This document shows, piece after piece, positions 1 to 19,483 of a stretch of 64,000 bases of DNA. The notes beneath the pieces were generated by a model. The model did no database searches, was not told where the DNA came from, and was given only the letters and a program-made list of their open reading frames with translations. Location of the stretch: assembly GCA_963707435.1 (NCBI GenBank), contig CAVPPF010000005.1, forward strand, positions 390,832 through 454,831. Direction: 5' to 3'. A program made the translations under genes and the position numbers. Numbering within the stretch: position 1 is the first letter of the stretch; each line of letters begins with the position of its first letter. This DNA comes from an uncultured Actinomycetota bacterium (GTDB lineage Bacteria; Actinomycetota; Acidimicrobiia; Spongiisociales; UBA4744).

Positions 1-3000
1 TCGGATCACCGGGGCCGTCACCGATGTCGGACCCACCGCCCCGGCCGCCGACGTCGAAGGGCTGGGCTACAACCCGTACGGTCAGCTGATGGGAACCTCC
101 GGTTCGGGCGCCCAACTGTGGGACTTCAACGAGACCACGGGGGCTGCCTCCAATCCCCGCAACCTGAACTACGGAGACTATGAATCAATCGACTGCAACA
201 CCGGCGGCAGTAATGCGATTAGCGGCACCGTGTTCAACGATCTCGACTCCAGCGGCGGCCAAGGAAGCGGCGAGCTGGGGATTCCCGGCGTCACCGTCAA
301 CCTCTACCGGGACACCAACGGAAACGGCTCCATCGATGCGGGTGAACCCCGGGTTGGAACGGTGACCACCGACGGGAACGGTCACTACGCCTTCGCAGTA
401 CGCACGACCGGTGCCTTCGTCCTCGACATTGACACCGGCACGCTCCCGGCCGGGGCCGTCATGACCACCGACAACCTCGAGGCAGCCGACTTCGGGACAG
501 CGTTCGGACAGTCGGACACCGGAAACGACTTCGGAGCGGTCGTGCCTCCCGCCATGTCGGTCACCAAGACCTCCGACCTGGCCGGACCGGTCGGACCCGG
601 TGATGTCATCACCTACACAATCACGGCGACCAACACCAGCACCGAAACCCAGACCGACATCGTGATCTCCGACCCGCTGCCGACTGGCACTACCTACGTC
701 TCGCAGTCGACCGTGGCCACAGGATATGAGAGCACCGCCGGCTCGTCGACCGTCACCTACGACAACATCGCCGACGTGGCCATCACATCAAATAGTTGCT
801 TCAACCGCACATTCTCCGTCTCGGAGGACCTGACATTGACCGACGTGGATCTCGGGTTCAACGCAGACCACACCTACCGGGGTGACATTCGACTCCGGTT
901 GACCTCTCCAGACGCCACCACGGTGACACTCGTGAACACGTCCAACGATTCCCGCGATGGATACGACTTGAAGTTCGACGATGCTTCGACGAATCCCATC
1001 AACGACGGCACCAACGACTCGACCGCCTCCCCCTACTACGACCGAACGGCCCGCCCGCAGAGCTTGTTGGGTGCCTTCAACGGAGAATCTTCGGCGGGAA
1101 CCTGGACTCTCGAGGTTTGCGATCTCGTGAGTGGCGATGTCGGCACCTACCACCGCTCACAGCTGGTCCTATCCGGAACCACATCCGGAATCTCCGCCGT
1201 TACCAGGGACAACGTTCCGGGCGGCGCCAATCCGGATCTGGTGGACGGTGTTCCCGCCGATCTCGTCGAAGCCGCCGACGGGTTCCTGCTCACGCAGGGA
1301 TCCTCGATGACGGTGACCTTCCAGGTTCAAGTCGACAACCCGCTAGGGGGTGGGATCACCGAAATCGAGAACACCGTAGCGGTCACATCCGATCAGCAAA
1401 CGACGCCAGTGACCGCATCCGACCTGCTTCCCGTCGGCTATGCCCCTGCCCTGGAAGTGGTGAAGTCGGGACCTGCCACGGCTGATGTCGGTGACACGGT
1501 CACGTACACCTTCTCGGTCACCAACGACAACGTCACCGGCGACGGGTCACCCATCACCATCACTGGTGTCACCGACGATGTGGCCGGAGCCGCTTCGTTC
1601 ACCGGAGGCGACGACGGCGACAACCTCCTCGAAGTCGGCGAAACCTGGACCTACCAAGCCACCCACACGGTCGGACTCGGCGACCCGGACCCCCTCGACA
1701 ACACCGTCACCGTCACCGGAACCGACCAGGACGGCGACCCCGTCCCCGACGCCACCGACACCCACAGCCTCGACATCGACTACGGTCCTGCCCTGGCGGT
1801 CGCCAAGTCCGGACCTGCCACCGCCAACGTGGGTGACACGGTCACCTACACCTTCTCGGTCGCCAACGACAACGTGGCGGGAGACGGGTCACCGATCACC
1901 GTCACCTCGGTCACCGACGACAACGCCGGGGCGGCTTCGTTCACCGGCGGCGACGACGGGGACAACCTGTTGGAGGTCGGTGAAACTTGGACCTACGAGG
2001 CGACCCACACGGTTGGGCTGGGCGACTCGGACCCACTGGTCAACACCGTCACCGTCACCGGCACCGACCAGGACGGCGACCCCGTAGCCGACGCCACCGA
2101 CACCCACAGCTTGGACATTGACTACGCCCCGGAGATCGATGTGGTGAAGTCGGGGCCGGCTACCGCAGACGTGGGTGACACGGTCACCTACACGTTCTCG
2201 GTCACCAACGACAACGTGGCCGGCGACGGATCCCCCATGACCGTCACCGGTGTCACCGACGATGTGGCCGGAGCCGCTTCGTACACCGGAGGCGACGACG
2301 GCGACAACCTCCTCGAAGTCGGCGAAACCTGGACCTACCAAGCCACCCACACTGTCGGACTCGGCGACCCGGACCCCCTCGACAACACCGTCACCGTCTC
2401 CGGCACCGACGCCGATGGAGACCCCGTGGCCGACGCCACCGACACCCACAGCTTGGACATCGACTATGAGCCTGTTCTCGACGTCACCAAGGCCGGACCT
2501 GCCACGGCAGATGTCGGCGACACGGTCACCTATACGTTCCAGGTGTTCCACGACGGGACCAGCGACGGCTCACCGGTCGCCAACGTGTTGGTCACGGACG
2601 ACATCGCTGGTACCGCGACCTATGTGTCCGGCGACAATGGCAACGGATTGCTCGAAGGGACCGAGATCTGGTTCTTCTCGGCCACCCACACCATCACCCT
2701 CACCGACCCCGACCCACTGAGCAACACTGTCACGGTTGCGGGAGATGACAGAGATGGGGACCCGATCACGCCTCCGACGGACGGTCATTCGCTCGATATC
2801 GACTACGCCCCTGCCCTGGATGTAGTGAAGTCGGGACCTGCCACGGCTGATGTCGGTGACACGGTCACGTACACCTTCTCGGTCACCAACGACAACGTCA
2901 CCGGCGACGGGTCACCCATCACCATCACTGGTGTCACCGACGATGTGGCCGGAGCCGCTTCGTTCACCGGAGGCGACGACGGCGACAACCTCCTCGAAGT

Positions 3001-6000
3001 CGGCGAAACCTGGACCTACCAAGCCACCCACACGGTCGGACTCGGCGACCCGGACCCCCTCGACAACACCGTCACCGTCACCGGAACCGACCAGGACGGC
3101 GACCCCGTCCCCGACGCCACCGACACCCACAGCCTCGACATCGACTACGGTCCTGCCCTGGCGGTCGCCAAGTCCGGACCTGCCACCGCCAACGTGGGTG
3201 ACACGGTCACCTACACCTTCTCGGTCGCCAACGACAACGTGGCGGGAGACGGGTCACCGATCACCGTCACCTCGGTCACCGACGACAACGCCGGGGCGGC
3301 TTCGTTCACCGGCGGCGACGACGGGGACAACCTGTTGGAGGTCGGTGAAACTTGGACCTACGAGGCGACCCACACGGTTGGGCTGGGCGACTCGGACCCA
3401 CTGGTCAACACCGTCACCGTCACCGGCACCGACCAGGACGGCGACCCCGTAGCCGACGCCACCGACACCCACAGCTTGGACATTGACTACGCCCCGGAGA
3501 TCGATGTGGTGAAGTCGGGGCCGGCTACCGCAGACGTGGGTGACACGGTCACCTACACGTTCTCGGTCACCAACGACAACGTGGCCGGCGACGGATCCCC
3601 CATGACCGTCACCGGTGTCACCGACGATGTGGCCGGAGCCGCTTCGTACACCGGAGGCGACGACGGCGACAACCTCCTCGAAGTCGGCGAAACCTGGACC
3701 TACCAAGCCACCCACACTGTCGGACTCGGCGACCCGGACCCCCTCGACAACACCGTCACCGTCTCCGGCACCGACGCCGATGGAGACCCCGTGGCCGACG
3801 CCACCGACACCCACAGCTTGGACATCGACTATGAGCCTGTTCTCGACGTCACCAAGGCCGGACCTGCCACCGCCAACCTCGGTGACACCCTCACCTACAC
3901 ATTCTCGGTCACCAACGACAACGCCGCAGGCGACGGATCCCCCATCACCGTCACCGGTGTCACCGACGATGTGGCCGGAGCCGCTTCGTACACCGGAGGC
4001 GATGACGGTGACAACCTGCTCGAAGTCGGCGAAACCTGGACCTACCAGGCGTCACACACGGTGACACTGTCGGATCCCGACCCGCTCCTCAATACGGTCA
4101 CCGTCTCCGGCACCGACCAGGACGGCGACCCCGTCCCCGACGCCACCGACACCCATTCACTTGACATCGACTACGCCCCGGAAATCGATGTAGTGAAGTC
4201 GGGGCCGGTTACCGCAGATGTTGGCGATACCGTCACCTACACATTCGCCGTGACCAACGACAACGTCACCGGAGACGGATCCCCCATCACCATCACCGGC
4301 GTCACCGACGACATCGCCGGAGCCGCCACCTATCAATCAGGCGACGACGGCGACAACCTCCTCGAAGTCGGTGAAACCTGGACCTACCAGGCATCACACA
4401 CGGTGACACTGTCGGATCCCGACCCGCTCCTCAATACGGTCACCGTCACCGGCACCGACCAGGACGGCGACCCCGTCCCCGACGCCACCGACACCCACAG
4501 CCTCGACCTCGACTACGGTCCTGCCCTGGCGGTCGCCAAGTCCGGACCTGCCACCGCCAACGTGGGTGACACGGTGACGTACACGTTCGCAGTCACCAAC
4601 GACAACGTCGCCGGAGACGGATCCCCCATCACCATCACCGGCGTCACCGACGATATCGCCGGAGCAGCCTCGTACACCGGTGGCGATGACGGCGACAACC
4701 TCCTCGAAGTCGGCGAAACCTGGACCTACACGGTGTCGTACACCATCCAGCCAATCGACCCGGATCCCCTCGCCAACACCGTCACCGTCACCGGAACCGA
4801 CCAGGACGGTGGAACGGTCACGGCCACCGACGGCCATTCGTTGGATGTCGAATTCGTTCCGGCAATGGGGGTCGTCAAGTCCGGTCCAGCTAGTGCAAGT
4901 GTTGGGGACACGGTCACCTTCACCTTCACCGTCACCAATGACAACGTCACCGGAGACGGCTCACCCATCACCATCACCGGCGTCACCGACGACATCGCCG
5001 GAGCCGCCACCTACCAATCCGGCGATGACGGGGACAACCTCCTCGAAGTCGGCGAAACCTGGACCTACCAAGCCACCCACACGACGACGCTGACCGACCC
5101 GGACCCGTTGGTAAACACGGTCACCGTCACCGGCACCGATGCCGATGGAGACGCAGTCACTCCCGCAACCGACACCCACAGCCTCGACATCGACTACGAC
5201 CCAGAGATCGATGTGGTGAAGTCGGGGTCGGCTACCGCAAACGTGGGTGACACGGTCACGTACTCGTTTGCGGTCACCAACGAAAACGTCATCGGGGACG
5301 GGTCACCAATTTCGGTCACTTCGGTCACCGACGACATCGCCGGAGCCGCCACCTACGTTTCCGGGGACGACGGCGACAACCTTCTCGAGGTCGGCGAAAC
5401 ATGGACCTACCAAGCCACTCACACGGTCGGGCTCGGGGATGCGGATCCGCTGGTCAACACAGTCACGGTCACCGGAACCGACCAGGACGGCGACCCCGTC
5501 ACCCCCGTCACCGACTCCCACTCCACCGACGTCGACTTCAACCCTCAACTCAACATCACTAAGGGGGGTCCGGCGAATGCCAATGTGGGTGACACACTCA
5601 CATTCACGTTCCTCGTGTTCCACGATGGAACGAGTGATGGGTCACCGGTCTACTCCGTCTCGGTCACCGACGACGTGGCTGGTAGCGCCACCTACGTGTC
5701 CGGCGATGACGGCGACGGGATCCTGCAGGCCAGCGAAATCTGGGCCTACTCCGTCACCTACACCGTTCAGCCGACCGACTCCGATCCGCTGATCAACACC
5801 GCCACCGTGACCGGCACCGATGCCGACGGAGATCCGATCACCCCTGCCACCGATACCCACTCCACCAACCTCGACTATGCCCCCGCCATGAGTGTGGCAA
5901 AGAGCGGGCCGGCCACCGCCAACCTCGGCGACACAGTCGCCTACACGTTCTCGGTCACCAACGACAACGTCACCGGGGACGGATCCCCCATCACCGTCAC

Positions 6001-9000
6001 CGGCGTGACCGACGACATCGCCGGAGCTGCCACCTACCAGTCCGGCGACGACGGCGACAACCTGCTCGAGGTCGGCGAAACCTGGACCTACCAGGCGTCA
6101 CACACCATCACCCTGTCGGACCCCGACCCGCTGATCAACACCGTGACCGTCACCGGCACCGACCAGGACGGCGACCTGGTCGCCAACGCCACCGACAGTC
6201 ACACGCTCGACATCGGATTCACCCCCGCCATCGACGTGGTCAAGAGCGGACCGGCCGGCGCCAGCGTGGGCGATACGGTGACCTATACCTTCTCGGTCAC
6301 CAACGACAACGCCACCGGGGACGGATCGCCCATCGCCATCGGCTCCGTCACCGACGACATCGCCGGAGCAGCCTCGTTCACCGGCGGTGACGATGGCGAC
6401 AACCTCCTCGAAGTCGGCGAAACCTGGACCTACCAGGCCACCCACACGATCCACCCGTCCGACCCCGACCCGCTGGTCAACACCGTCACCGTCACCGGCA
6501 CCGACCAGGACGGCGACCCAGTCGCCGACGCCAGCGACGGCCACTCAACAGGCATTGACTATGCCCCTGCTCTCGACGTCGTGAAGTCAGGGCCGGCCAC
6601 CGCCAACGTGGGCGACACCGTCACCTACTCCTTCGAGGTCACCAACGACAACGCAGCGGGCGACGGGTCGCCGATCACAGTTGCCTCAGTAACGGATGAC
6701 ATCGCCGGCGCCGCCACCTACCAATCAGGCGACGACGGCGACAACCTCCTCGAAGTCGGCGAAACCTGGACCTACCAGGCCACCCACACCATCACCCTGT
6801 CGGACCCCGACCCGCTGATCAACACGGTCACCGTCACCGGAACCGACCAGGACGGAGACCCCGTTCCGGACGCCACCGACACCCACTCCACCGCCCTCGA
6901 CTATGGACCTGGGCTGGATGTGGTCAAGTCCGGACCCGCCACCGCCAACGTGGGCAGCACTGTCACCTACACGTTCGCCGTGACGAACGACGGTGTTGTC
7001 GGGGATGGCTCACCGATCACCGTCACTTCAGTAACCGACGATGTGGCAGGTGCCGGCACATATCTGGCTGGTGATGACGGCGACAACCTCCTCGAAGTCG
7101 GCGAAACCTGGACCTACCAGGCCACCCACACGGTCGGACTCGGCGACCCGGATCCACTGGTCAACACCGTCACCGTCACCGGCAACCGACCAGGACGGAG
7201 ACCCCGTCCCCGACGCCACCGACACCCACTCCACCGACGTCGATTTCGGGCCGGTCCTCGATGTGACCAAGTCCGGGCCGGCTTCGGCGGCGATCGGCGA
7301 CACCGTGACGTACACCTTCTCGGTCACCAACGAAAACGTGACCGGAGACGGCTCACCCATCACCATCACCTCGGTCACCGACGACATCGCCGGAGCAGCC
7401 ACCTACCAATCCGGCGATGACGGGGACAACTTCCTCGAAGTCGGCGAAACCTGGACCTACCAGGCCACCCACACGGTCGGACTCGGCGACCCGGATCCGC
7501 TGGTCAACACGGTGACCGTCACGGGCACCGATGCTGACGGGGACCCGATCACCCCCGCCACCGACACCCACAGCCTGGACATCGGTTTCGCCCCGGTCCT
7601 CGATGTGACCAAGTCCGGGCCGGCCACCGCAGATGTGGGCGACACCGTCACCTACGCGTTTGCCGTGACCAACGACAACGTGGCCGGAGACGGCTCACCC
7701 ATCACCATCACCTCGGTCACCGACGACGTCGCCGGAGCAGCCACCTACCAATCCGGCGATGACGGGGACAACCTCCTCGAAGTCGGCGAAACCTGGACCT
7801 ACCAAGCCACCTACACCATCCAGGCCACCGACCCGGATCCGCTCACCAACACCGTGACCGCCACCGGAACCGACCAGGACGGAGACCCCGTCCCAGACGC
7901 CACCGACACCCACTCCACCGACGTGGGCTACGCACCGGCTCTCGACGTGGTCAAGTCCGGTCCGGCCATGGCGGCAGTCGGGGAAACGGTCACCTACACG
8001 TTCGCGATCACCAACGACAACGTGGCCGGAGACGGCTCACCCGTCACCATCACCGGAGTCACCGACGATGTCGCCGGAGCGGCCACCTACCAATCCGGCG
8101 ACGACGGCGACAACCTCCTCGAAGTCGGCGAAACCTGGACCTACCAAGCCACCCACACCATCACCCTGTCGGACCCCGACCCGCTCACCAACACCGTCAC
8201 CGCCACCGGCACCGACCAGGACGGCGACCCGGTGCCCGACGCCACCGACGCCCACGTCACGGACCTAATCAATCCGAGCATCGCCATCAGCAAGACCCCG
8301 GACCTGCAGACCGTCGTCACCGGCGGAACCGCCACGTTCACCGTCACGGTCACCAACACGGGGGACAGCACCCTGGCCGGTATCACCGTCACCGACCCGC
8401 TGGCACCCGACTGTGACCGTTCGCTGGGCGACTTCGGCCCGGGCGCCTCCATCACCTACACCTGCACGCTCTCCGGAGTGGCTGCCGACTTCACCAACAC
8501 GGCCACGACAGCCGGGACCGACCTGCTGGGCAACCCGGTGACGGACTCCGACACGGCCGACGTCACCGTGCTGATCCCGACGATCGACATCCAGAAGACC
8601 CCGGATCTGCAGACCATCGCCCTGAACGGAGATGCGACCTTCACGATCACCGTGACCAACACCGGACCGGTCGACCTCACCAATGTCGCCGTCGCCGATC
8701 CGCTCGCCCCCACGTGTGACTCGACCATCGGTGACCTGGCCGCCGGCGCGTCGACTTCGTACGCCTGCACGCTCGCCGGGGTGACGGCCGACTTCACCAA
8801 CACCGCCACCGTCACCGGGGACGATCCACTCGGTAACCCAGTCTCGGACAGTGACGACGCCGTCGTCGACGTCATTGCTCCGGCCATCGAGATCCAGAAG
8901 ACCCCCGACGTCCAGAACGCGGTCAGCGGGGCTGACGCCACCTTCACCATCTCGGTGATCAACAGCGGCGACACCAACTTGACCAACGTGGTCGTCTCGG

Positions 9001-12000
9001 ATCCGCTCGTTCCGGCCTGCGACGCCACTATCGGCGATCTGGCCGCCGGAGCGTCGACGTCGTACGTATGCTCACTGGCCGGGGTGACGGCCGACTTCAC
9101 CAACACCGCCACGGCAACCGGGTCAGACCTGCTGGGCAATCCCGTGACCGACACCGACACTGCCCAGGTGAACGTGCTGATCGGCTCGATCGAGATCCAG
9201 AAGACCCCCGACAGCCAGCTGGTGCCTTACGGCGGTGACGCCGACTTCACAATCGCTGTGACCAACACCGGACCGATCGACCTCACCAACGTGACCGTCA
9301 CCGATCCGCTGGCTCCCGCCTGCGACAACGCCATCGGTGACCTGCCGTCTGGAACGACCGTCACCTATGGGTGCACCATGCCGGGTGTGCTGGCCGATGT
9401 GACCAACGTCGCCACAGTGAATGCCAACGACACTGCGGGCAACCCCTACACGGGCACGGACGACGCCGACGTCACCATCGTCACCCCGGTCGTCGAAATC
9501 GAAAAGACGCCGGATCTGCAGACAATCCTGACCGGCGGAGACGCAACGTTCACCATCACCGTGAGCAACAACGGGGATGTCGATCTCAGCAACGTCGCCG
9601 TTTCCGATCCCTTGGCTCCCAACTGCGACAACGCCATCGGTGACCTGACTGCCGGGGCGTCGACGTCGTATGCCTGCACGCTCACCGGAGTGGCAGCCGA
9701 CTTCACCAACACCGCTACCGTGACCGCCGAGGATCCCTTCGGCAATCCTCTCACCGACAGCGACACGGCCGATATCGATGTGATCGACCCGGGCGTCGAG
9801 ATCCAGAAGACACCCGACACCCAAACCATCTTGTCCGGTGACGATGCCCACGTTCACCATCACCGTGACCAACACCGGCGATGTACTACTCACCGGCGTG
9901 ACGGTCACAGATCCGCTCGCTTCTGACTGCGATGCCCTCATCGGCGACATGGCCATCGGCACAACGACCTCCTATTCGTGCACGATGACGGCCGTCGCCG
10001 AGGATGTTGGTGAACATCGCCTCGGTGACGGCCGGAGATCCGCTCGGCAATCCTCATACGGACTCCGATGATGCCGCCGTGGACGTCGTCAACCCGGCGG
10101 TTGCCATCGAGCAAGACCCCGGACCTGCAGACCGTCGTCACCGGCGGGGACGCAACGTTCACCATCACCGTCACCAACACCGGAGACACCCACCTCACCG
10201 ACGTCACGGTCGTCGACCCGCAGGCCCCGGCCTGTGACACCGTCGTGGCCAGTCTCGACGCCGGCGACTCTTACACCTACAGTTGCGATGAGTCCGGTGT
10301 GGTAGCCGATTTCACCAACTCCGCATCGGTGAGTGCGACAGATCCGATCGGCAACCCCGTGGACGTCGACACCGCCCAGGTCAACGTGATCAAGCCGTCC
10401 ATCGAGATCCAGAAGATCCCCGACCTCCAGACCATCCCGGTCGGCGGCGATGCCACGTTCACCATCACGGTCACCAACACCGGACCCGTGGCCTTCACCG
10501 ACGTGGCGGTCAGCGATCCACTCGCTCCCGATTGCGACAACACGATCGGTGATCTGGCGATCGGCGCCTCGGTCACGTACTCGTGCACCATGCCAGGACT
10601 GCTGGCGGACATCGTGAATACGGCCACGGTGAATGGCGACGATCCGATCGGCAACCCGTGGACCGACAGCGATACCGCCGATGTCGATGTGATCGCCCCC
10701 GACATTCAGATCGACAAGACGCCGGACAATCAGAGTGTCCCGCTAGGTGACACCGCTACCTTCACCATCACGGTGACCAACACCGGTGACGTAGACTCTG
10801 TCCAATGTCACGGTGACCGATCCGCTGGCTCCCGGTTGTGACGCATCGTCGGTGACCTGGCTTCTGGCACGTCCACTTCCTATGTCTGCACCCTCACCGG
10901 AGTGATCGCCGATTTCACCAACACCGCCACCGTCACCGCCAACGACCCCCTCGGCGGCGTCACCGACACCGACACCGCCGACGTCAACGTGATCCTCCCG
11001 TCGATCGAGATCCAAAGACCCCCGACAACCAGACCGTGATCACCGGCGGCGACGCCACCTTCACCATCACCGTCACCAACACCGGACCCGTCGCCTCACC
11101 GACGTCACCGTGCCGACCCGCTCGCCCCGGCCTGCGACGCCACCTGCCGGCGACCTGGCCATCGGCGCCACCACCCCTACGCTGCACCCTCACCGGTGAC
11201 TGCCGACTTCACCAACACCGCCACCGTCACCGCCGATGACCCGCTCGGCGGCGCCGTCACCGACACCGACACCGCCGACGTCAACGTCCTCCACCCCTCC
11301 ATCTAATCCAAAAGACCCCCGACAACCAGCCGTCATCCCGGCGGCGACACGCCACCTTCACCATCACCGTCACCAACACCGGACCCGTCGCCCTGGCCAA
11401 CGTCACCGCCGACCCGCTCACCCCCCCTGCGACGACACCATCGGCGACCTGGCAGTCGGGCCACCACACCTATGTCTGCACCCTCACCGGGGTGACCGCC
11501 GACTTCACCAACACGCCACCGTCACCGGCATCGACCCCCTCGGCGGCGCGTCACCGACACCGACACCGCCGACGTCACCGTCATCGCTCCCCACGATCGA
11601 GATCCAGAAGACACCCGACAACCAAATCTGTGACACCGGGGCGACGCCACCTTCACCATCACCGTCACCAACACCGGACGCCGTCGCCCTGACCAACGTC
11701 ACCGAGCCGACCGCTGGCCCCCGCCTGCGACGCCACCGATCGGCGACCTCGCCACCGGCGCCACCACCGCCAATGCCAGCACGATCACCGACGTGACCCC
11801 CGACCCCAACGGACCGCCACCGACACCTACAACTACCCCCTCGGCGGCGCCCTCTGCGACACCGCCACCGTCACCATCACCGTGACCGCTGCAGGCGCAA
11901 ACACCAACCCGAGCGCGGCCGATGATGCAGCGACGACTCCCGAGGACGCGGCTGTGGGCATCAGTCCGCTGACCAACGACACCGACGCCGACGGTGACAC

Positions 12001-12856
12001 CCTCACCATCCATTCGGTCACTCAACCGGCCAACGGCACCGTCGTCGACAACGGCGACGGAACCATCACCTATACCCCCGACCCCAACTACTCGGGGACC
12101 GACAACTTCACCTACACCATCTCCGACGGGAACGGCGGCACCGCCACGGCCACCGTCACCGTGAACGTCACTCCGGTCAACGACGCACCGGTCGCGATCG
12201 ATGATGCAGCATTCACCGGACCCGGAACGCCGGTCGTCATACCGGTGCTCGGGAACGACACCGACGCCGACGGTGACCCCCTCACCGTGGCTTCGGCGAC
12301 TGCACCGACCAACGGAACGGTAACGATCAACCCGGATGGGACCATCACCTACACCCCCAACACCGGCTACAGCGGAATCGACACGTTCACCTATGTCGTG
12401 TCCGACGGGAACGGCAGCACTTCCACCGCCACCGTGACGGTCGAGGTCGGCGTCGCCAATAATCCACCGACCTTCACGAGCAATCCCGCCAATACCTCTC
12501 AAACAGTCGAGGTCGGAGGCACACTGCTTCCGCTGACAGGACTCGATCCGGACGGCGACACCTACAGCTTCATCCTGTCGGCCGGCTCTCTCCCACCCGG
12601 AGTCACCCTCAATCCCGACGGCACCTTCAGCGGTTCACCGACCAGCCCCGGGACCTTCACCGCCACCATCACTATCTGCGACAGCTACTGGTCTCGTGCT
12701 CGAGCGGAGTCCTAACGATCCAGGTAGTCGCTCCCGGCGCACTCCCCTACACCGGCGTCGACTTCCGGCGCTCTGGCCGTCGTGGGAATGCTGATGCTGT
12801 TGATGGGCGGTTCGCTCGTCGCGGCTTCACATCGACGGCGCGAACGGGGCATCTAG
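1..12856 (+). CDS. Giant LPXTG-anchored repeat adhesin, more than 4200 aa, 5'-partial. Domains: SdrD-B/Cna-B-like, DUF11, proprotein-convertase P-domain, about 20 DUF11-like type-A repeats (~114 aa), about 13 type-B Cys-containing repeats (~100 aa), cadherin/He_PIG Ig-like modules, then LPYTG+TM+RRRERG. Reading frame broken by at least 10 single-nt indels from ~7184 onward (pseudogene or sequencing errors).
   Basis: Frame 2 is open from nt 2 (no stop before the ATG at 89). The 2443-aa ORF 89..7420 shows SGTVFNDLDSSGG...GHYAF (SdrD B-like) and a P-domain (NRTFSVSEDLTLTDVDLGFNADHTYRGDIRLRLTSPDATTV...WTLEVCDL). Tandem units end in HSLDIDY. The repeat content continues in shifted frames: ORFs 7041..9926, 10068..10841 and 11882..12715. 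The C-terminus carries LPYTG followed by a hydrophobic stretch and RRRERGI*. Confidence 0.6.
1460..2503 (+). repeat. Copy 1 of a perfect ~1.04-kb intragenic duplication (about 3 adhesin repeat units)
   Basis: ORF-track translations 1485..2087 and 2850..3452 are 100% identical, as are 1438..1623 and 2803..2988. The nucleotide lines match exactly from ~1460/2825 up to the divergence at 2503/3868. Confidence 0.8.
2825..3868 (+). repeat. Copy 2 of the perfect ~1.04-kb intragenic duplication (offset 1365 bp)
   Basis: Identical to 1460..2503. Diverges at gccacggcagatgtc versus gccaccgccaacctc. Confidence 0.8.
12742..12856 (+). other. Sortase sorting signal of the adhesin: LPYTG motif, hydrophobic TM segment (ALAVVGMLMLLMGGSLVAA) and positively charged tail (SHRRRERGI*). 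The motif and the TM segment are separated by a 1-nt frameshift.
   Basis: Manual translation: ctc ccc tac acc ggc in frame 1 gives LPYTG. The TM segment plus tail read in frame 2 and end at TAG 12854-12856. Confidence 0.55.
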
Positions 12857-14477: not shown

Positions 14478-15371
14478 TCAGGGGGAGGGTGGCACACCCA
14501 CCCGGGTCCCACCCTCACCGGGGGAGGCCAGCACACCCAGACGGGACCGCTGGGCTGACCGCTCGAAGCTGATCGCTCTTCTACCCGAACAGTCGGAAGC
14601 CGGCCAGGAGCGACTCGGCCGCTTCACCTTCCACCTCGAGCCCGCCTGCAGCTTGGGCCATCTCGTGACGTCCGGCGACTCGAGCAGGTAGGCGAGTGCG
14701 GATCCCTCGATCCGCTCGATCGTCCCGGATTCAGCCTCAACCAGGTTGCCCCGTCGATCTGCGACGACAAGGTCTGCCACGGTGCCACCCCGTCCGCTGA
14801 GCTCAAGACGAATGCGGGTGCCGTCGGGCAGACAGGCGCCCTTGACCGCGCCCCACCCGGTCAAGCGCACGGCCCTTCCGACCACCAGAGATTCGGCGAG
14901 CGGCGCAGCGGGACTTTCCAGAGGCAATCCGAGCGCGAACCGCAGATCAAGCAGATGGACGTAGAGGTCGCTGAGGCGAATGTCTGCGAAATTGATCACG
15001 CTGGTCATGCCGAGCGGACCCATGGTCGGCTCCTGCCAACCCGTTTCTTCCAGACCGCGCAATCGCTCGAGCCGGGTCCGCGAGGCTGTGCGGAACTCTT
15101 TGAGAACTTCCTCGTTCGACCAGCTCCGGCGGGCCACCACTCCGGTATCAGTTACCTGATGCAAACCGGTGTGCTCGGAAGACCATCCCACCGGCGGTTC
15201 GGGTTGCGGGAGCCCCAGAAACAACGACTCCAAACCACCAAGGTGCGCAGCCAGATCCTTGATGTCCCATTCTGTGTTGGGCGTGGGGAGCGCCCACTGC
15301 TCGTCCGGGAGTGCGTCCAGAAGTGCACCGATGCTGCTCCAGGTTTCTTCAAGTGCGCGAAGAATCTCCAT
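14478..15371 (-). CDS. DinB_2 / mycothiol-dependent maleylpyruvate isomerase N-terminal-domain family protein (TIGR03083-like). The C-terminal ~50 aa are probably spurious read-through into the GC-rich palindromes.
   Basis: N-terminus MEILRALEETWSSIGALLDALPDEQWALPTPNTEWDIKDLAAHLGG is characteristic of the family. The low-complexity tail is encoded by the palindromic region 14400-14480. Confidence 0.55.
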   Translation of the reverse strand: MEILRALEETWSSIGALLDALPDEQWALPTPNTEWDIKDLAAHLGGLESLFLGLPQPEPPVGWSSEHTGLHQVTDTGVVARRSWSNEEVLKEFRTASRTRLERLRGLEETGWQEPTMGPLGMTSVINFADIRLSDLYVHLLDLRFALGLPLESPAAPLAESLVVGRAVRLTGWGAVKGACLPDGTRIRLELSGRGGTVADLVVADRRGNLVEAESGTIERIEGSALAYLLESPDVTRWPKLQAGSRWKVKRPSRSWPASDCSGRRAISFERSAQRSRLGVLASPGEGGTRVGVPPSP

Positions 15372-15516: not shown

Positions 15517-17322
15517 TCAGGACTCGGCGAGACCCAGCGCCGCTTCGGCGGGTTCCAATCGCTGGCCACCCGCCAGCGCCGGCGCGAACAGATCCCCGGA
15601 GCGCTGCAGCCGGTCCCAGATCGTCGCCATCGTGAAATCGTCGGGGCGGACGGTCTCCAGTTCGCTCCACAGGAAAGGCGCCGATACGGGCGCTCCCGGC
15701 CGGGGACGGACCGAGTAGACCGAGGCGATGGTCTTTCCGCCGACGTTCTGGTTGTGGTCGATGAAGACCTTGCCGGCCCGCCTGGGGATGTCCCACTCCA
15801 TGGTGATTTCATCCGGGTTGGCCGCCACCAGAAGGCGACCGAGCGATTCGACGAACTTGCGAACCCGGCCGTACTCGTAGATCGGGTCGAGGGGAACGTA
15901 GATGTGGAGGCCCGTTGCACCTGAGGTCTTGGGGTAGCCGGTGAGGCCCATCTGGTCGAGGGCCACTTTGATCAGCTTGGCGACTTCAACCACCTGGTCC
16001 CAGGTTGCCCCGTCGGCCGGGTCGAGATCGAAGATTGCGAAGTCGGGCCGGTCGACGCTCGCAGCCCGCGACAGCCACGGATGGATCTCGATGCACCCCA
16101 TGTTCGCCAGCCACATCAGCGACTCGGCATCCCGGGCCGTCACGAAGTCGATCGCCGCTCCGCGATGCCCGGAGTGGATGGGCGCCAGCGGCATCCAGTC
16201 GGGTTGATGGCCGGGGGCCTGCTTCTCGTAGAAGAAGCTGCCGTCGGCACCATCCGGGAATCGGGCCATGACGATGGCGCGGTCCTGCAGATGCGGGACG
16301 AGCACCGGTGCAATCGACGCGTAGTACTGGATGAGGTCGCCCTTGGTATATCCGTCCGGGAAGAACGGTTTGTCGACGTTGGAGAGCCGCAACGGCCGGT
16401 AGGGACCTACCGGGCGGGCATGCGCTCCGTCGGGTATCACTCGAATCGGTTCGGGGAACGCGATCGCTCCCGAGCCCAGCAGACGGCCGGTCGATTCCTC
16501 TGCGGTTCCGGCTGCCAGCGTCTGGCGGATCTCGGCCAGCATGGCGTCGTGACTGTCTTGTTCCTTCGCCTCGGAGATGATCACCATCCGCAACCCGGCG
16601 TCCTGCGCCGCCTCGACCAGCGGGCCGATCCTGATCGTGCCGGTCCCGTAGGGAATGTGCTTGATCTCTCCCTTGTCCCCGAACAGGTTGTCGGTGAACT
16701 GTGCCTGGAGCGGATCGATCATCCATCCCGGAAAGTTGTCCCGCAGGAACGAAATCACCGAGGCGAAGGCCTCCTTCGAGGTCAGGGCTCCACCGCTGAT
16801 GGCGTGCACGTGGGCCCAATCGACCAGGGGCCTGACGAAAGGGAACTCATTGGCCAGCAGCGCAATATCCCCGAGGGTGCCGTAGGCGCTTTCCTTGCCG
16901 GCGGTCTCCAAACCCAGGGCCACGCCAAGGTGCTGCACTTTGGGAGCCAGGTATTCGAGGCGAGCCCTTACGAGGTCGAGCAGGTCCGGGCCGGATCGCC
17001 CGTGTTTGTTGCCCAGATGGGCACAGATGATCCGTGAACCGAGGGCCTTCCCGAGCTTCATCGTGTGCTCGAGAGCCGCCAGGCATTGCTTGGCCCGGTC
17101 TTCTTCTTCAACGGTCAGAATCGCGAAGTACGGGGCATGGACGGACACTGCGATGTCGCGTTCCGCCGCCAAGCGCCCGAACGAAGCACACCGTTTCTCC
17201 TTCCAGGGGAAGTCCTTGACGAACGGCAGCTCGACCGCCTGGTGACCACGGGCGACCAGATCGTCGAGAAAGGCTGCGTCGTCGTCGCCGGGCGGGAGCC
17301 GCGATATGCCGAAGCGGATCAT
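15517..17322 (-). CDS. Fusion protein: N-terminal Endonuclease IV-like AP endonuclease (AP_endonuc_2 / xylose-isomerase-like TIM barrel) plus C-terminal LigD-type primase-polymerase (PolDom / Prim-Pol, AEP superfamily)
   Basis: N-terminal half carries Nfo-like motifs: SVHAPYF, ICAHLG, GLETAGK, VDWAHVHA. C-terminal half carries the three AEP/LigD-Pol motifs: FAIFDLDPAD (DxD), KTSGATGLHIYVPL (SGxxGxH), KVFIDHNQNVGGKTIASVYSVRP. Confidence 0.7.
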   Translation of the reverse strand: MIRFGISRLPPGDDDAAFLDDLVARGHQAVELPFVKDFPWKEKRCASFGRLAAERDIAVSVHAPYFAILTVEEEDRAKQCLAALEHTMKLGKALGSRIICAHLGNKHGRSGPDLLDLVRARLEYLAPKVQHLGVALGLETAGKESAYGTLGDIALLANEFPFVRPLVDWAHVHAISGGALTSKEAFASVISFLRDNFPGWMIDPLQAQFTDNLFGDKGEIKHIPYGTGTIRIGPLVEAAQDAGLRMVIISEAKEQDSHDAMLAEIRQTLAAGTAEESTGRLLGSGAIAFPEPIRVIPDGAHARPVGPYRPLRLSNVDKPFFPDGYTKGDLIQYYASIAPVLVPHLQDRAIVMARFPDGADGSFFYEKQAPGHQPDWMPLAPIHSGHRGAAIDFVTARDAESLMWLANMGCIEIHPWLSRAASVDRPDFAIFDLDPADGATWDQVVEVAKLIKVALDQMGLTGYPKTSGATGLHIYVPLDPIYEYGRVRKFVESLGRLLVAANPDEITMEWDIPRRAGKVFIDHNQNVGGKTIASVYSVRPRPGAPVSAPFLWSELETVRPDDFTMATIWDRLQRSGDLFAPALAGGQRLEPAEAALGLAES

Positions 17323-17372: not shown

Positions 17373-17780
17373 ATGCGCACACAAGCCACGTTCGTCTGGA
17401 CTTCGGAAGGACCCGACCCGGCGCGAACGCTGGCAGAGCTGATCATTCGCGGGGTGTCCGAAGCCGGTTTCGGGTGCACACCGGTCGAGGACCTCGACTA
17501 CGCCCACGCCTTCCGCACCGTTGTGGGGCGTCGCAACTTCTTCATCATGATGGGCGAGGTCGAAGATGGGGTCCGCCAATGGCTGGTCTCAACCAAGAGC
17601 GAGCTCGGGATCTTCGCCTATCTCATGGGCTCGCGGGACTATCAGGAATACGAGGTGCTCACCGGAGTTCTGCACGAATGCCTCAGCTCGCTGCCGGGGC
17701 TGACCGACCTCCGCTGGTACTCGCTCGAGGACTACAACGAGCGGCCGGACACCGATTGGGCGGCCACGCCCGGTGAGTAG
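17373..17780 (+). CDS. Hypothetical protein (135 aa), divergently transcribed 50 bp from the AP-endonuclease/Prim-Pol fusion
   Basis: Complete ORF with no recognisable motif. Its position is suggestive of functional linkage. Confidence 0.4.
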   Translation: MRTQATFVWTSEGPDPARTLAELIIRGVSEAGFGCTPVEDLDYAHAFRTVVGRRNFFIMMGEVEDGVRQWLVSTKSELGIFAYLMGSRDYQEYEVLTGVLHECLSSLPGLTDLRWYSLEDYNERPDTDWAATPGE

Positions 17781-18949: not shown

Positions 18950-19483
18950 CTACTCGACGGTGGACCTCAGCATCCAGGCCGTCTTCTCGTGGATATTGAT
19001 GCGCTGGGTAGCCAGATCAGCCGAGGCAACATCGCCGGCCTTCTCGGCGGCCGCCACCACCGTTCGCGCTGTGCGCACCACGGTCTCGTGCCCGGTTGCC
19101 AGCCGGCGCACCATTTCGAGGGCGTCGGGAGATTCAGTGTCGTCGGGAATGCTCGACAACGCAGCAAAATCCGCATAGCCAAGCGGGGTGAGGTGCCCCA
19201 GAGCCCGGATACGCTCGGCGACTTCATCAACCGCATCGCGAATTTCCAGGTACTGCTCCTCGAACATCGTGTGCAAGGCCCGGAACATGGTTCCGGTCAC
19301 ATTCCAGTGATAGACGTGTGTCTTGAGGTAGAGCGTGTACGTGTCCGCAAGAAGGTGCGCCAGACCTGCTGCTATTTCCTTACGATCTGGCTCGGCGATA
19401 CCGGTGTTGATCTCCACTTCTGAGGCTCCTTCTGGATGGTGATCTCCTGGAGCCGAGTCTACGACGATGCCACATTGTGCCAA
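18950..19483 (-). CDS. dps: Dps (DNA-binding ferritin-like protein from starved cells)
   Basis: LADTYTLYLKTHVYHWNVTGTMFRALHTMFEEQY is the ferritin-like di-iron/Dps signature region. Confidence 0.75.
   Translation of the reverse strand: MAQCGIVVDSAPGDHHPEGASEVEINTGIAEPDRKEIAAGLAHLLADTYTLYLKTHVYHWNVTGTMFRALHTMFEEQYLEIRDAVDEVAERIRALGHLTPLGYADFAALSSIPDDTESPDALEMVRRLATGHETVVRTARTVVAAAEKAGDVASADLATQRINIHEKTAWMLRSTVE

Follow-up and report, generated by a model that had tools for sequence, protein, structure and literature searches.

The coupling of DNA end processing to gap filling is precedented in two kinds of protein, PolX-PHP and the phosphoesterase-polymerase (PE-Pol) part of LigD, and the component families that concern us here are themselves known. 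PolX-PHP, found in bacteria and archaea, carries a gap-filling polymerase and a multi-metal His/Asp nuclease in one polypeptide, and its activities include those of an AP (apurinic/apyrimidinic) endonuclease, a 3'-phosphodiesterase, a 3'-phosphatase, and a 3'-5' exonuclease (PMC6616362, PMC3479172). In LigD, a 3'-phosphoesterase (PE) is coupled to a primase-polymerase domain (PolDom). LigD/LigC-family primase-polymerases have long been viewed as end-joining enzymes, and their proposed role in excision repair has so far been based mainly on mycobacterial pull-downs and in vitro reconstitution with endonuclease IV (Endo IV). In mycobacteria, Endo IV was recovered together with LigC, and of the 3'-end processors it performed best in gap repair by Prim-PolC and LigC1 in vitro; the reconstituted order is Fpg, Endo IV, Prim-PolC, and LigC1 (PMC5663958). 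LigD itself has also been implicated in excision-type repair (PMC4770248, PMC5663958). Here we analyze a 64,000-nucleotide stretch of contig CAVPPF010000005.1 from an uncultured Actinomycetota bacterium (hereafter the window), which contains a fusion gene encoding an N-terminal Endo IV-like barrel and a C-terminal LigD-type primase-polymerase in one 601-residue protein. The fusion protein is probably a bifunctional DNA-repair enzyme, in which the barrel would yield a clean 3'-OH, the polymerase would fill a gap bearing a 5'-phosphate, and a separate ligase would seal the product.

The fusion gene and its distribution

The fusion gene is one continuous open reading frame (ORF) from ATG to TGA, with no stop codon and no frame break. 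Its parts are listed below, with the barrel compared to E. coli Endo IV (Nfo) and the polymerase to the archaeo-eukaryotic primase (AEP) motifs.

15517..17322, minus strand: fusion gene, 601-residue protein, ATG at 17322 and TGA at 15517-15519
16513..17322, minus strand: N-terminal endonuclease IV-like TIM barrel, residues 1-270
16387..16512, minus strand: fast-evolving inter-domain linker, residues 271-312 (42 residues)
15520..16386, minus strand: C-terminal LigD-type primase-polymerase domain, residues 313-601
17125..17139, minus strand: HAPYF, residues 62-66; by hhalign, H62 matches Nfo H69 and Y65-F66 match the DNA-inserting Y72-L73
17011..17022, minus strand: AHLG, residues 101-104; H102 matches Nfo H109 (hhalign)
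16894..16908, minus strand: ETAGK, residues 139-143; E139 matches Nfo E145, the bridging ligand (hhalign)
16801..16821, minus strand: DWAHVHA, residues 168-174; D168 matches Nfo D179 and H171 matches H182 (hhalign)
16696..16710, minus strand: LQAQF, residues 205-209; Q206 at the position of Nfo H216 (hhalign)
16645..16671, minus strand: GEIKHIPYG, residues 218-226; E219 is the likely substitute for Nfo D229, and H222 matches H231 (hhalign)
16570..16581, minus strand: IISE, residues 248-251; E251 probably corresponds to Nfo E261, by alignment to MJ1311
16339..16383, minus strand: 5'-phosphate pocket N315, K318, and K327 (SNVDK ... TKG), aligned to the Prim-PolC pocket
16018..16032, minus strand: AEP motif I, FDLDP, residues 431-435, with catalytic D432 and D434
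15904..15924, minus strand: AEP motif II, SGATGLH, residues 467-473, with H473
15745..15759, minus strand: AEP motif III, DHNQN, residues 522-526, with catalytic D522

All motifs named in the preliminary description of this DNA are found in the 601-residue ORF in the order given there, including HIPYG (residues 222-226) and YSVR (residues 536-539). In Pfam searches, the N half matches AP_endonuc_2 (PF01261, residues 20-258, E = 4.7e-22, 79.3 bits against a cutoff of 31.1), and the C half matches LigD_Prim-Pol (PF21686, residues 326-579, E = 2.4e-89, 299.7 bits, profile positions 1-254 of 254). Both scores are well over the Pfam cutoffs, and the matches are far beyond chance. The two-domain fusion gene is real, and its motifs are as reported. 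A promoter and terminator scan gave no signal above shuffled expectation.

The same full-length architecture is found in 120 listed protein clusters with 65-92% identity, and about 60 further clusters contain both domains, which brings the total to more than 180. A genome scan with one genome per GTDB species found at least 574 stretches that encode relatives of the N-domain, and the best 80 of these all belong to Acidimicrobiia-type metagenome-assembled genomes (MAGs), several of which are closed chromosomes. Closed chromosomes among the carriers are CP070681.1, OY762464.1, OZ251535.1, OZ219757.1, OZ246890.1, OZ219923.1, and OZ243930.1. ORF calls found the intact fusion in 73 of 85 fetched loci, the remainder being mostly cut by contig ends. 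Across the clusters and the fetched loci, fusion carriers are nearly all Acidimicrobiia. A few relatives are split, and these are what would speak for an artefact, namely chimeric joining during assembly or two adjacent genes with a frameshift. Among the members of one cluster (P0244) are separate ORFs of 345 and 255 residues on one 73-kb contig (P0380-P0382), and another locus (L027, 10001-11161) has an N-only ORF of 386 residues on the closed MAG chromosome CP070681.1; these split ORFs represent either gene fission or frameshift and sequencing errors. Against an artefact stand the continuous frame, the constant linker length of 47-53 residues over the family, and the recurrence of the intact fusion in more than 180 clusters and 73 loci from independent assemblies, closed MAG chromosomes included. 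This recurrence effectively rules out an assembly or frameshift origin, to which we assign next to no probability, and the earlier claim of a single polypeptide holds.

Both halves are under strong purifying selection. In comparisons with the two closest relatives, the barrel has a ratio of nonsynonymous to synonymous substitution rates (dN/dS, Nei-Gojobori method) of 0.04-0.05, the polymerase one of 0.05-0.07, and the linker one of 0.25-0.32. The low values in both halves indicate that both domains are kept by selection. When the N-domain was used in an exhaustive HMMER search, a fusion of reversed order was recovered as well, with LigD_Prim-Pol at residues 30-281 followed by AP_endonuc_2 at residues 347-581 (P0244). 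The reversed order recurs in three further divergent clusters from other Actinomycetota MAGs (P0406, P0407, and P0408; 47-51% identity, 97-99% coverage), and it is rarer than the barrel-first order. Because both domain orders exist, the linkage appears to be selected for in itself, and no other comparative evidence speaks as strongly for the two activities belonging together.

The full-length protein was modeled by AlphaFold2 on a 60-sequence alignment, giving a mean pLDDT (per-residue confidence) of 93.7 and a pTM (whole-model confidence) of 0.92. As this pTM is high for a two-domain chain, the model suggests a fixed packing of barrel and polymerase rather than a floppy tether. The linker is predicted to be mostly ordered, with pLDDT of 72 at residues 271-280 and 93-94 at residues 281-300, and with a beta-hairpin at residues 294-304. 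Over all comparisons, its dN/dS is 0.25-0.97, and its block conservation over the family is 0.46-0.57. The linker combines fast evolution with constant length and predicted order.

The polymerase and the barrel

The C half passes the TIGR02778 ligD_pol model (238.6 bits, cutoff 214.7) and contains all three AEP motifs, I (DxD), II (SGxGxH), and III (hD). Among 121 full-length fusions, D432, D434, D522, and N526 are invariant, and H473 is His in 120. The residues aligned to N20, K23, and K35 of Prim-PolC, which form its 5'-phosphate pocket (PMC5663958), are also retained: N315 and K318 in 120 of the 121 and K327 in all. The retention of catalytic and 5'-phosphate residues points to a competent polymerase. 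The best solved relatives of the C half are M. smegmatis Prim-PolC (5OP0, E = 6.4e-57, and 6SA0, about 6e-57), the Methanocella end-joining polymerase (5DMU, 1.1e-55), and the LigD PolDom of M. tuberculosis (2IRU, 1.3e-43); the LigD PolDom of P. aeruginosa (2FAO) is also among them.

Although the mycobacterial Prim-PolC/LigC complex (5OP0, 6SA0) contains the top-scoring solved relative and follows the same proposed order of reactions, the fusion differs from it in having neither a LigC operon nor the Prim-PolC hallmark, an extra C-terminal stretch of about 43 residues that shows strict conservation and comprises alpha8 and Loop 3 (PMC5663958). This extension was not found: the window protein runs on for only about 14 residues past the 5OP0 alignment, and the tail is 23-36 residues long in all 121 fusions. 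By this sequence criterion, the polymerase is therefore LigD-type and not a Prim-PolC in the defining sense. The preliminary description was thus right about the AEP motifs and the LigD PolDom type of this half, and its likening to Prim-PolC was not borne out. The LigD PolDoms (also named Prim-PolD; 2IRU, 2FAO, 5DMU) share with the fusion polymerase the PF21686 and TIGR02778 passes, the AEP motifs, the 5'-phosphate pocket, and the lack of Loop 3. In contrast to them, the fusion polymerase is neither fused to nor located beside ligase or phosphoesterase domains and is joined to the Endo IV-like barrel instead. The fusion protein has no ATP-dependent ligase domain with the KxDGxR adenylation motif: there is no PF01068 match, and of the LigD models only the polymerase parts match (positions 317-583 of TIGR02776). 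Database names of the relatives include 'non-homologous end-joining DNA ligase' and 'bifunctional NHEJ protein LigD' (NHEJ, non-homologous end joining), and these names are a systematic misannotation of ligase-less proteins.

For the barrel, a single-sequence search of the PDB with the N-domain returned nothing at E<10. A profile built from 47 fusion and stand-alone relatives gave significant matches to endonuclease IV chains of S. aureus, Geobacillus, B. anthracis, M. tuberculosis, T. maritima, E. coli, and T. thermophilus; the only further significant matches were Apn1, MJ1311, TTHB071, and UvdE. No sugar isomerase was among the significant matches of this profile, and the only other chain listed was a racemase at a non-significant E of 0.48. 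This agrees with the earlier placement of the domain with Nfo rather than with sugar isomerases. When the profile was restricted to fusion-type N-domains, archaeal MJ1311 (3WQO) came top over its full length (E = 1.6e-15), followed by bacterial Endo IV (about 2e-8), and the only isomerase-type matches were far down the list (Art22, 7.2e-5; IolI, 1.6e-3). The barrel is thus of the xylose-isomerase-like TIM type and is nearest in fold to solved Endo IV. MJ1311 has been given as a predicted M. jannaschii Endo IV homolog, and P. furiosus PF0258, with 13.5% identity to E. coli Nfo, is nonetheless an AP endonuclease and 3'-5' exonuclease (PMC2770678). MJ1311 and PF0258/PfuAPE are stand-alone proteins of about 270-290 residues, whereas the barrel described here is fused, and MJ1311 has Phe where the fusion barrel has Y65.

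The metal ligands were mapped with hhalign by aligning the family profile to E. coli Nfo. In the Nfo sequence used, each of the nine ligand positions given in the literature carries the expected residue, which supports its accuracy. This alignment pairs H62 with H69, H102 with H109, E139 with E145, D168 with D179, H171 with H182, Q206 with H216, and H222 with H231. The likely equivalence of E251 with E261 lies outside the hhalign range and comes from the alignment to the barrel-end Glu of MJ1311. Seven of the nine Nfo ligands are identical (H62, H102, E139, D168, H171, H222, and E251), and these seven together with E219 are invariant in the 121 full-length fusions. Position 206 is His in 61 and Gln in 60 of the fusions, and it is His in stand-alone relatives. 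The free alternation of His and Gln under strong overall constraint suggests that both residues are functional, and this variation at a usually conserved ligand may inform metal use in the Endo IV superfamily. Active Endo IV enzymes are known to tolerate variation in ligands and metals: solved structures contain Zn only, Zn/Mn, Zn/Fe, Zn/Ca, or Zn/Mg, and even E261 is replaced in Gram-positive Endo IV (PMC13113976). The residues H62, A63, P64, and Y65 are invariant over fusion and stand-alone relatives. The HAPY(F) segment aligns with H69-D-S-Y72-L73 of Nfo, of which Y72 and L73 are the DNA-inserting residues (PMC13113976), and the HAPY(F/I) motif matches true Endo IV. By these sequence features, the N-domain is Endo IV-like in fold and active-site plan, and it lies outside the curated nfo family.

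Proposed function and alternative readings

We propose that the barrel is a divergent phosphodiesterase of the endonuclease IV type with a multinuclear metal site. Its most likely role would be to make a 3'-OH, either by incision 5' of an abasic site or by removal of a 3' block such as a 3'-phosphate, a 3'-unsaturated aldehyde, or a 3'-phosphoglycolate. The LigD-type polymerase would then dock on the 5'-phosphate of the downstream strand and fill a short gap, and a separately encoded ATP-dependent ligase would close the nick. The covalent linkage, with its apparently defined packing in the predicted model, may allow the repair intermediate to pass from nuclease to polymerase without release. 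Short single-strand gaps of the base-excision type seem to be the primary substrate, and the synapsed ends of double-strand breaks would be served by this chemistry as well.

Incision plus gap filling by one polypeptide has a precedent in concept, since bacterial PolX-PHP does this with unrelated folds (PMC6616362). PolX-PHP is the closest functional analogue of the fusion, and it combines a Pol beta-like nucleotidyltransferase with a PHP barrel, whereas the fusion combines an AEP primase-polymerase with a xylose-isomerase-like TIM barrel. Because the folds are unrelated, the shared function, if real, would be convergent. The LigD phosphoesterase has the same conceptual role, with 3'-end healing coupled to PolDom, and again an unrelated fold. 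The barrel does not appear to be a simple replacement of this domain, because one locus (L043) encodes both the fusion and a separate phosphoesterase. Mycobacterial Endo IV differs from the fused barrel in being a separate protein that contacts LigC1 and not Prim-PolC (PMC5663958).

Several observations weigh against the reading of the fusion as an Endo IV-type repair enzyme. The N half scores 22.6 bits with the NCBIfam nfo model TIGR00587, far below the cutoff of 129.65, and stand-alone barrel relatives score 27-68 bits. One canonical ligand is missing from the window protein, in which Gln replaces the H216 equivalent. At D229, hhalign places E219 or the adjoining I220, and the spacing is altered, the Glu standing one residue further from the His. 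No convincing equivalent of the DNA-flipping Arg37 was found, the hhalign alignment starting past that loop. Endo IV and tagatose/psicose epimerases are not told apart by Foldseek E-values. MJ1311, which is the nearest solved structure, is annotated as 'D-tagatose 3-epimerase-like' and is without demonstrated nuclease activity; it reportedly keeps all nine ligands and has no obvious DNA groove. Compared with Endo IV (Nfo/Apn1; E. coli 1QTW, T. maritima 2X7V), to which it is about 15% identical, the barrel also has a strand-2 Glu (E31), like isomerase-like barrels, and is joined to a polymerase. Finally, no gene for a ligase, Ku, or a glycosylase shows consistent linkage to the fusion at the loci examined, and the pathway context thus rests on two loci and on analogy. 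The preliminary description of this half as an AP endonuclease therefore stands for the Endo IV-like barrel and most of the ligands and not for a canonical Nfo, and, of the residues whose loss would have spoken against that description, the polymerase Asp and His residues are all kept, and in the barrel the H216 equivalent is Gln and the D229 equivalent is shifted. These points could mean that the barrel is not a DNA enzyme at all and is instead a metal enzyme resembling MJ1311 or the sugar isomerases, or else a module without activity that has a structural or regulatory role, in which case the fusion would be uninformative on abasic-site processing. The missed nfo cutoff, the epimerase label of the nearest structure, the Foldseek ranking, the Gln at a universally conserved ligand, and weak matches to CbiR phosphodiesterase among barrel relatives all fit this reading, and yet we consider it improbable. 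H62, H102, H171, and H222, the histidines of Endo IV metal sites 1 and 3, are all invariant, and E-D-H-E epimerases are not known to have these four. The HAPY(F/I) motif and the isomerase-free significant matches of the 47-relative profile also argue against it, and fusion to a polymerase in both orders with a dN/dS of 0.04 would hardly be expected of a sugar enzyme or of a domain that has lost its function. A different view is that the barrel's main activity is that of a 3'-5' exonuclease or a 3'-ribonuclease, as with the PHP domain of PolX or the LigD phosphoesterase, and that it edits the additions of an error-prone, ribonucleotide-preferring polymerase rather than recognising lesions as an AP endonuclease. 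The Endo IV family, PF0258 included, has 3'-5' exonuclease activity (PMC2770678, PMC13113976), PolX PHP domains edit 3' termini (PMC2566882, PMC7893174), no equivalent of Arg37, which flips the orphan base, was found, and the high full-length pTM suggests a fixed domain arrangement in the predicted model. However, the Tyr-hydrophobic pair that inserts at a flipped abasic site is invariant, and no sequence feature separates exonuclease from endonuclease function. Known Endo IV uses one site for both activities, so that such trimming would be a shift of emphasis and not an exclusive alternative; as the main activity of the barrel, we regard it as unlikely.

The remaining alternative concerns the pathway, in that the fusion may be a dedicated end-joining enzyme, the polymerase of a split LigD system, with the barrel healing Ku-held ends (3'-phosphates and phosphoglycolates) beside or instead of the LigD phosphoesterase; on this view, base-excision repair would not be its task. 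The polymerase passes ligD_pol and is without the Loop 3 that marks gap-specific Prim-PolC from end-joining PolDom (PMC5663958), and both ligases found near a fusion are LigD-type. In L043, a stand-alone LigD phosphoesterase gene overlaps the gene of a 335-residue ligase by 4 bases (5098-6692), and this pair, which has no adjoining PolDom or Ku gene, is found some 3.3 kb upstream of the fusion. In L071, a 325-residue ligase is encoded about 4.6 kb from the fusion. The two ligases score 283.9 and 282.2 bits with TIGR02779 (cutoff 227.75) and are far below the LigC-like NF006078. The 80 metagenomic relatives of the L043-type ligase belong mostly to arrays of phosphoesterase, ligase, and polymerase genes in which the PolDom is an ordinary one and an Endo IV-like domain is lacking. 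Because the polymerase slot of the L043 pair is empty, the fusion in L043 appears to fill the polymerase role of a split LigD system. On the other hand, L043 has its own phosphoesterase gene, no Ku gene was found in the window, in about ten Pfam-annotated neighbourhoods, or in L043 and L071, and the part of LigD in excision-type repair (PMC4770248, PMC5663958) blurs the distinction between the two pathways. A tblastn search of the window and 165 loci (80 of them LigD loci) with an M. tuberculosis Ku query also gave no match; it had no positive control and is uninformative. In the 64-kb window, no ligase adenylation motif was found among the called ORFs, and tblastn with Acidimicrobiia ligase and phosphoesterase baits gave no match, so the ligase C or D sought nearby is absent from the window and, near relatives, is LigD-type only. 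The LigD-type polymerase and ligase point towards end joining, and gap repair is favoured by the chemistry of Endo IV, the precedent in mycobacteria, and the lack of Ku nearby. We judge a dedicated end-joining enzyme to be rather unlikely. The earlier assignment to base-excision repair keeps its precedent in mycobacterial Endo IV and Prim-PolC (PMC5663958), and it is an inference with which a role in end joining competes on equal terms.

In the literature covered, which was weighted towards open access with subscription papers under-covered, we found no description of an Endo IV-like/LigD Prim-Pol fusion, only papers on mycobacterial and B. subtilis LigD, in agreement with the initial impression that the architecture is uncharacterised. 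What appears to be undescribed is the combination itself, its wide distribution in Acidimicrobiia, the occurrence of both domain orders, and the H/Q polymorphism at a metal ligand. A selected fusion in both orders across a bacterial class is independent evolutionary evidence that both activities act on the same intermediates. The fusion also offers a compact single-protein system for studying the hand-off from 3'-end cleaning or abasic-site incision to gap filling. More tentatively, it might be a third independently evolved machine of the 'cut/clean-and-fill' kind after PolX-PHP and LigD PE-Pol, in which incised abasic sites or cleaned 3' ends would be channelled in a fixed geometry into 5'-phosphate-directed, probably ribonucleotide-based gap filling, with a stand-alone LigD-type ligase and no Ku. 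Such a machine would constitute a Ku-independent, LigD-derived pathway for the repair of single-strand breaks and abasic sites in Acidimicrobiia, and it would confirm, as a natural Rosetta stone, that Endo IV and the Prim-Pols of the LigD family share a pathway outside mycobacteria too, although we hold this broader idea to be doubtful.

Neighbouring genes

The neighbours of the fusion gene in the window encode a xanthine/uracil permease, an MDMPI_N/DinB_2 protein, a 135-residue protein, a carbonic-anhydrase-like protein, a Dps/ferritin protein, and giant cadherin-repeat proteins. Among the first 85 loci, the recurrent neighbours encode HisA/F-like, aldehyde dehydrogenase, histidine kinase, PlsY, LPG-synthase-like, and AhpC proteins. 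A repair operon was rejected as an explanation of these recurrent neighbours, which reflect clade synteny. No PolDom gene lies beside the stand-alone barrel homologs P0242 and P0248, where unfused adjacent pairs were sought.

The DinB_2/MDMPI_N gene (14478-15371, minus strand) lies directly downstream of the fusion, as it does in the closest relatives (L001, 11951-12742), and in a 46%-identical relative an unrelated DinB_2 gene occupies this place (L005, 3330-3839). It was rejected as a partner of the fusion, as it is not seen at other loci. On the other side, the 135-residue ORF (17373-17780, plus strand) is divergent and starts 50 bp from the fusion start codon. It has no Pfam match, and it is kept in the three closest relatives (L001, L002, and L006) and was not found beyond them. 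The Dps/ferritin-like gene (18950-19483, minus strand) is 1.6 kb from the fusion. Near relatives, AhpC belongs to a 16-locus synteny block and is encoded directly upstream of the phosphoesterase gene in L043, and an Fe-SOD gene is found near the fusion in L170-L173. The presence of Dps/ferritin, AhpC, and Fe-SOD nearby is a weak hint at an oxidative-damage context.

The giant surface proteins with cadherin, Big_9, and He_PIG repeats are encoded at 89-7420 and 10068-12715 (both plus strand) and include a 2443-residue ORF. Their genes lie a few kb downstream of the fusion, past the DinB_2 and permease genes, and they are kept in the 89%-identical relative L001 (14734-21806). In L001, two IS110-family transposase genes (1323-3937), absent at the counterpart position of the window, are located 6-8 kb upstream of the fusion. 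Reversed-order fusions are followed by a convergent gene for a second, stand-alone Endo IV-like barrel of 267 residues (L170, 11932-12735, minus strand; L172, 12338-13141, minus strand). This barrel is very distant and carries the motifs CLDTSHA, HLSDN..DDHLPPGQG, and LELN. In L172, genes for a 3-methyladenine DNA glycosylase and a PolX-PHP protein are found about 10 kb away.

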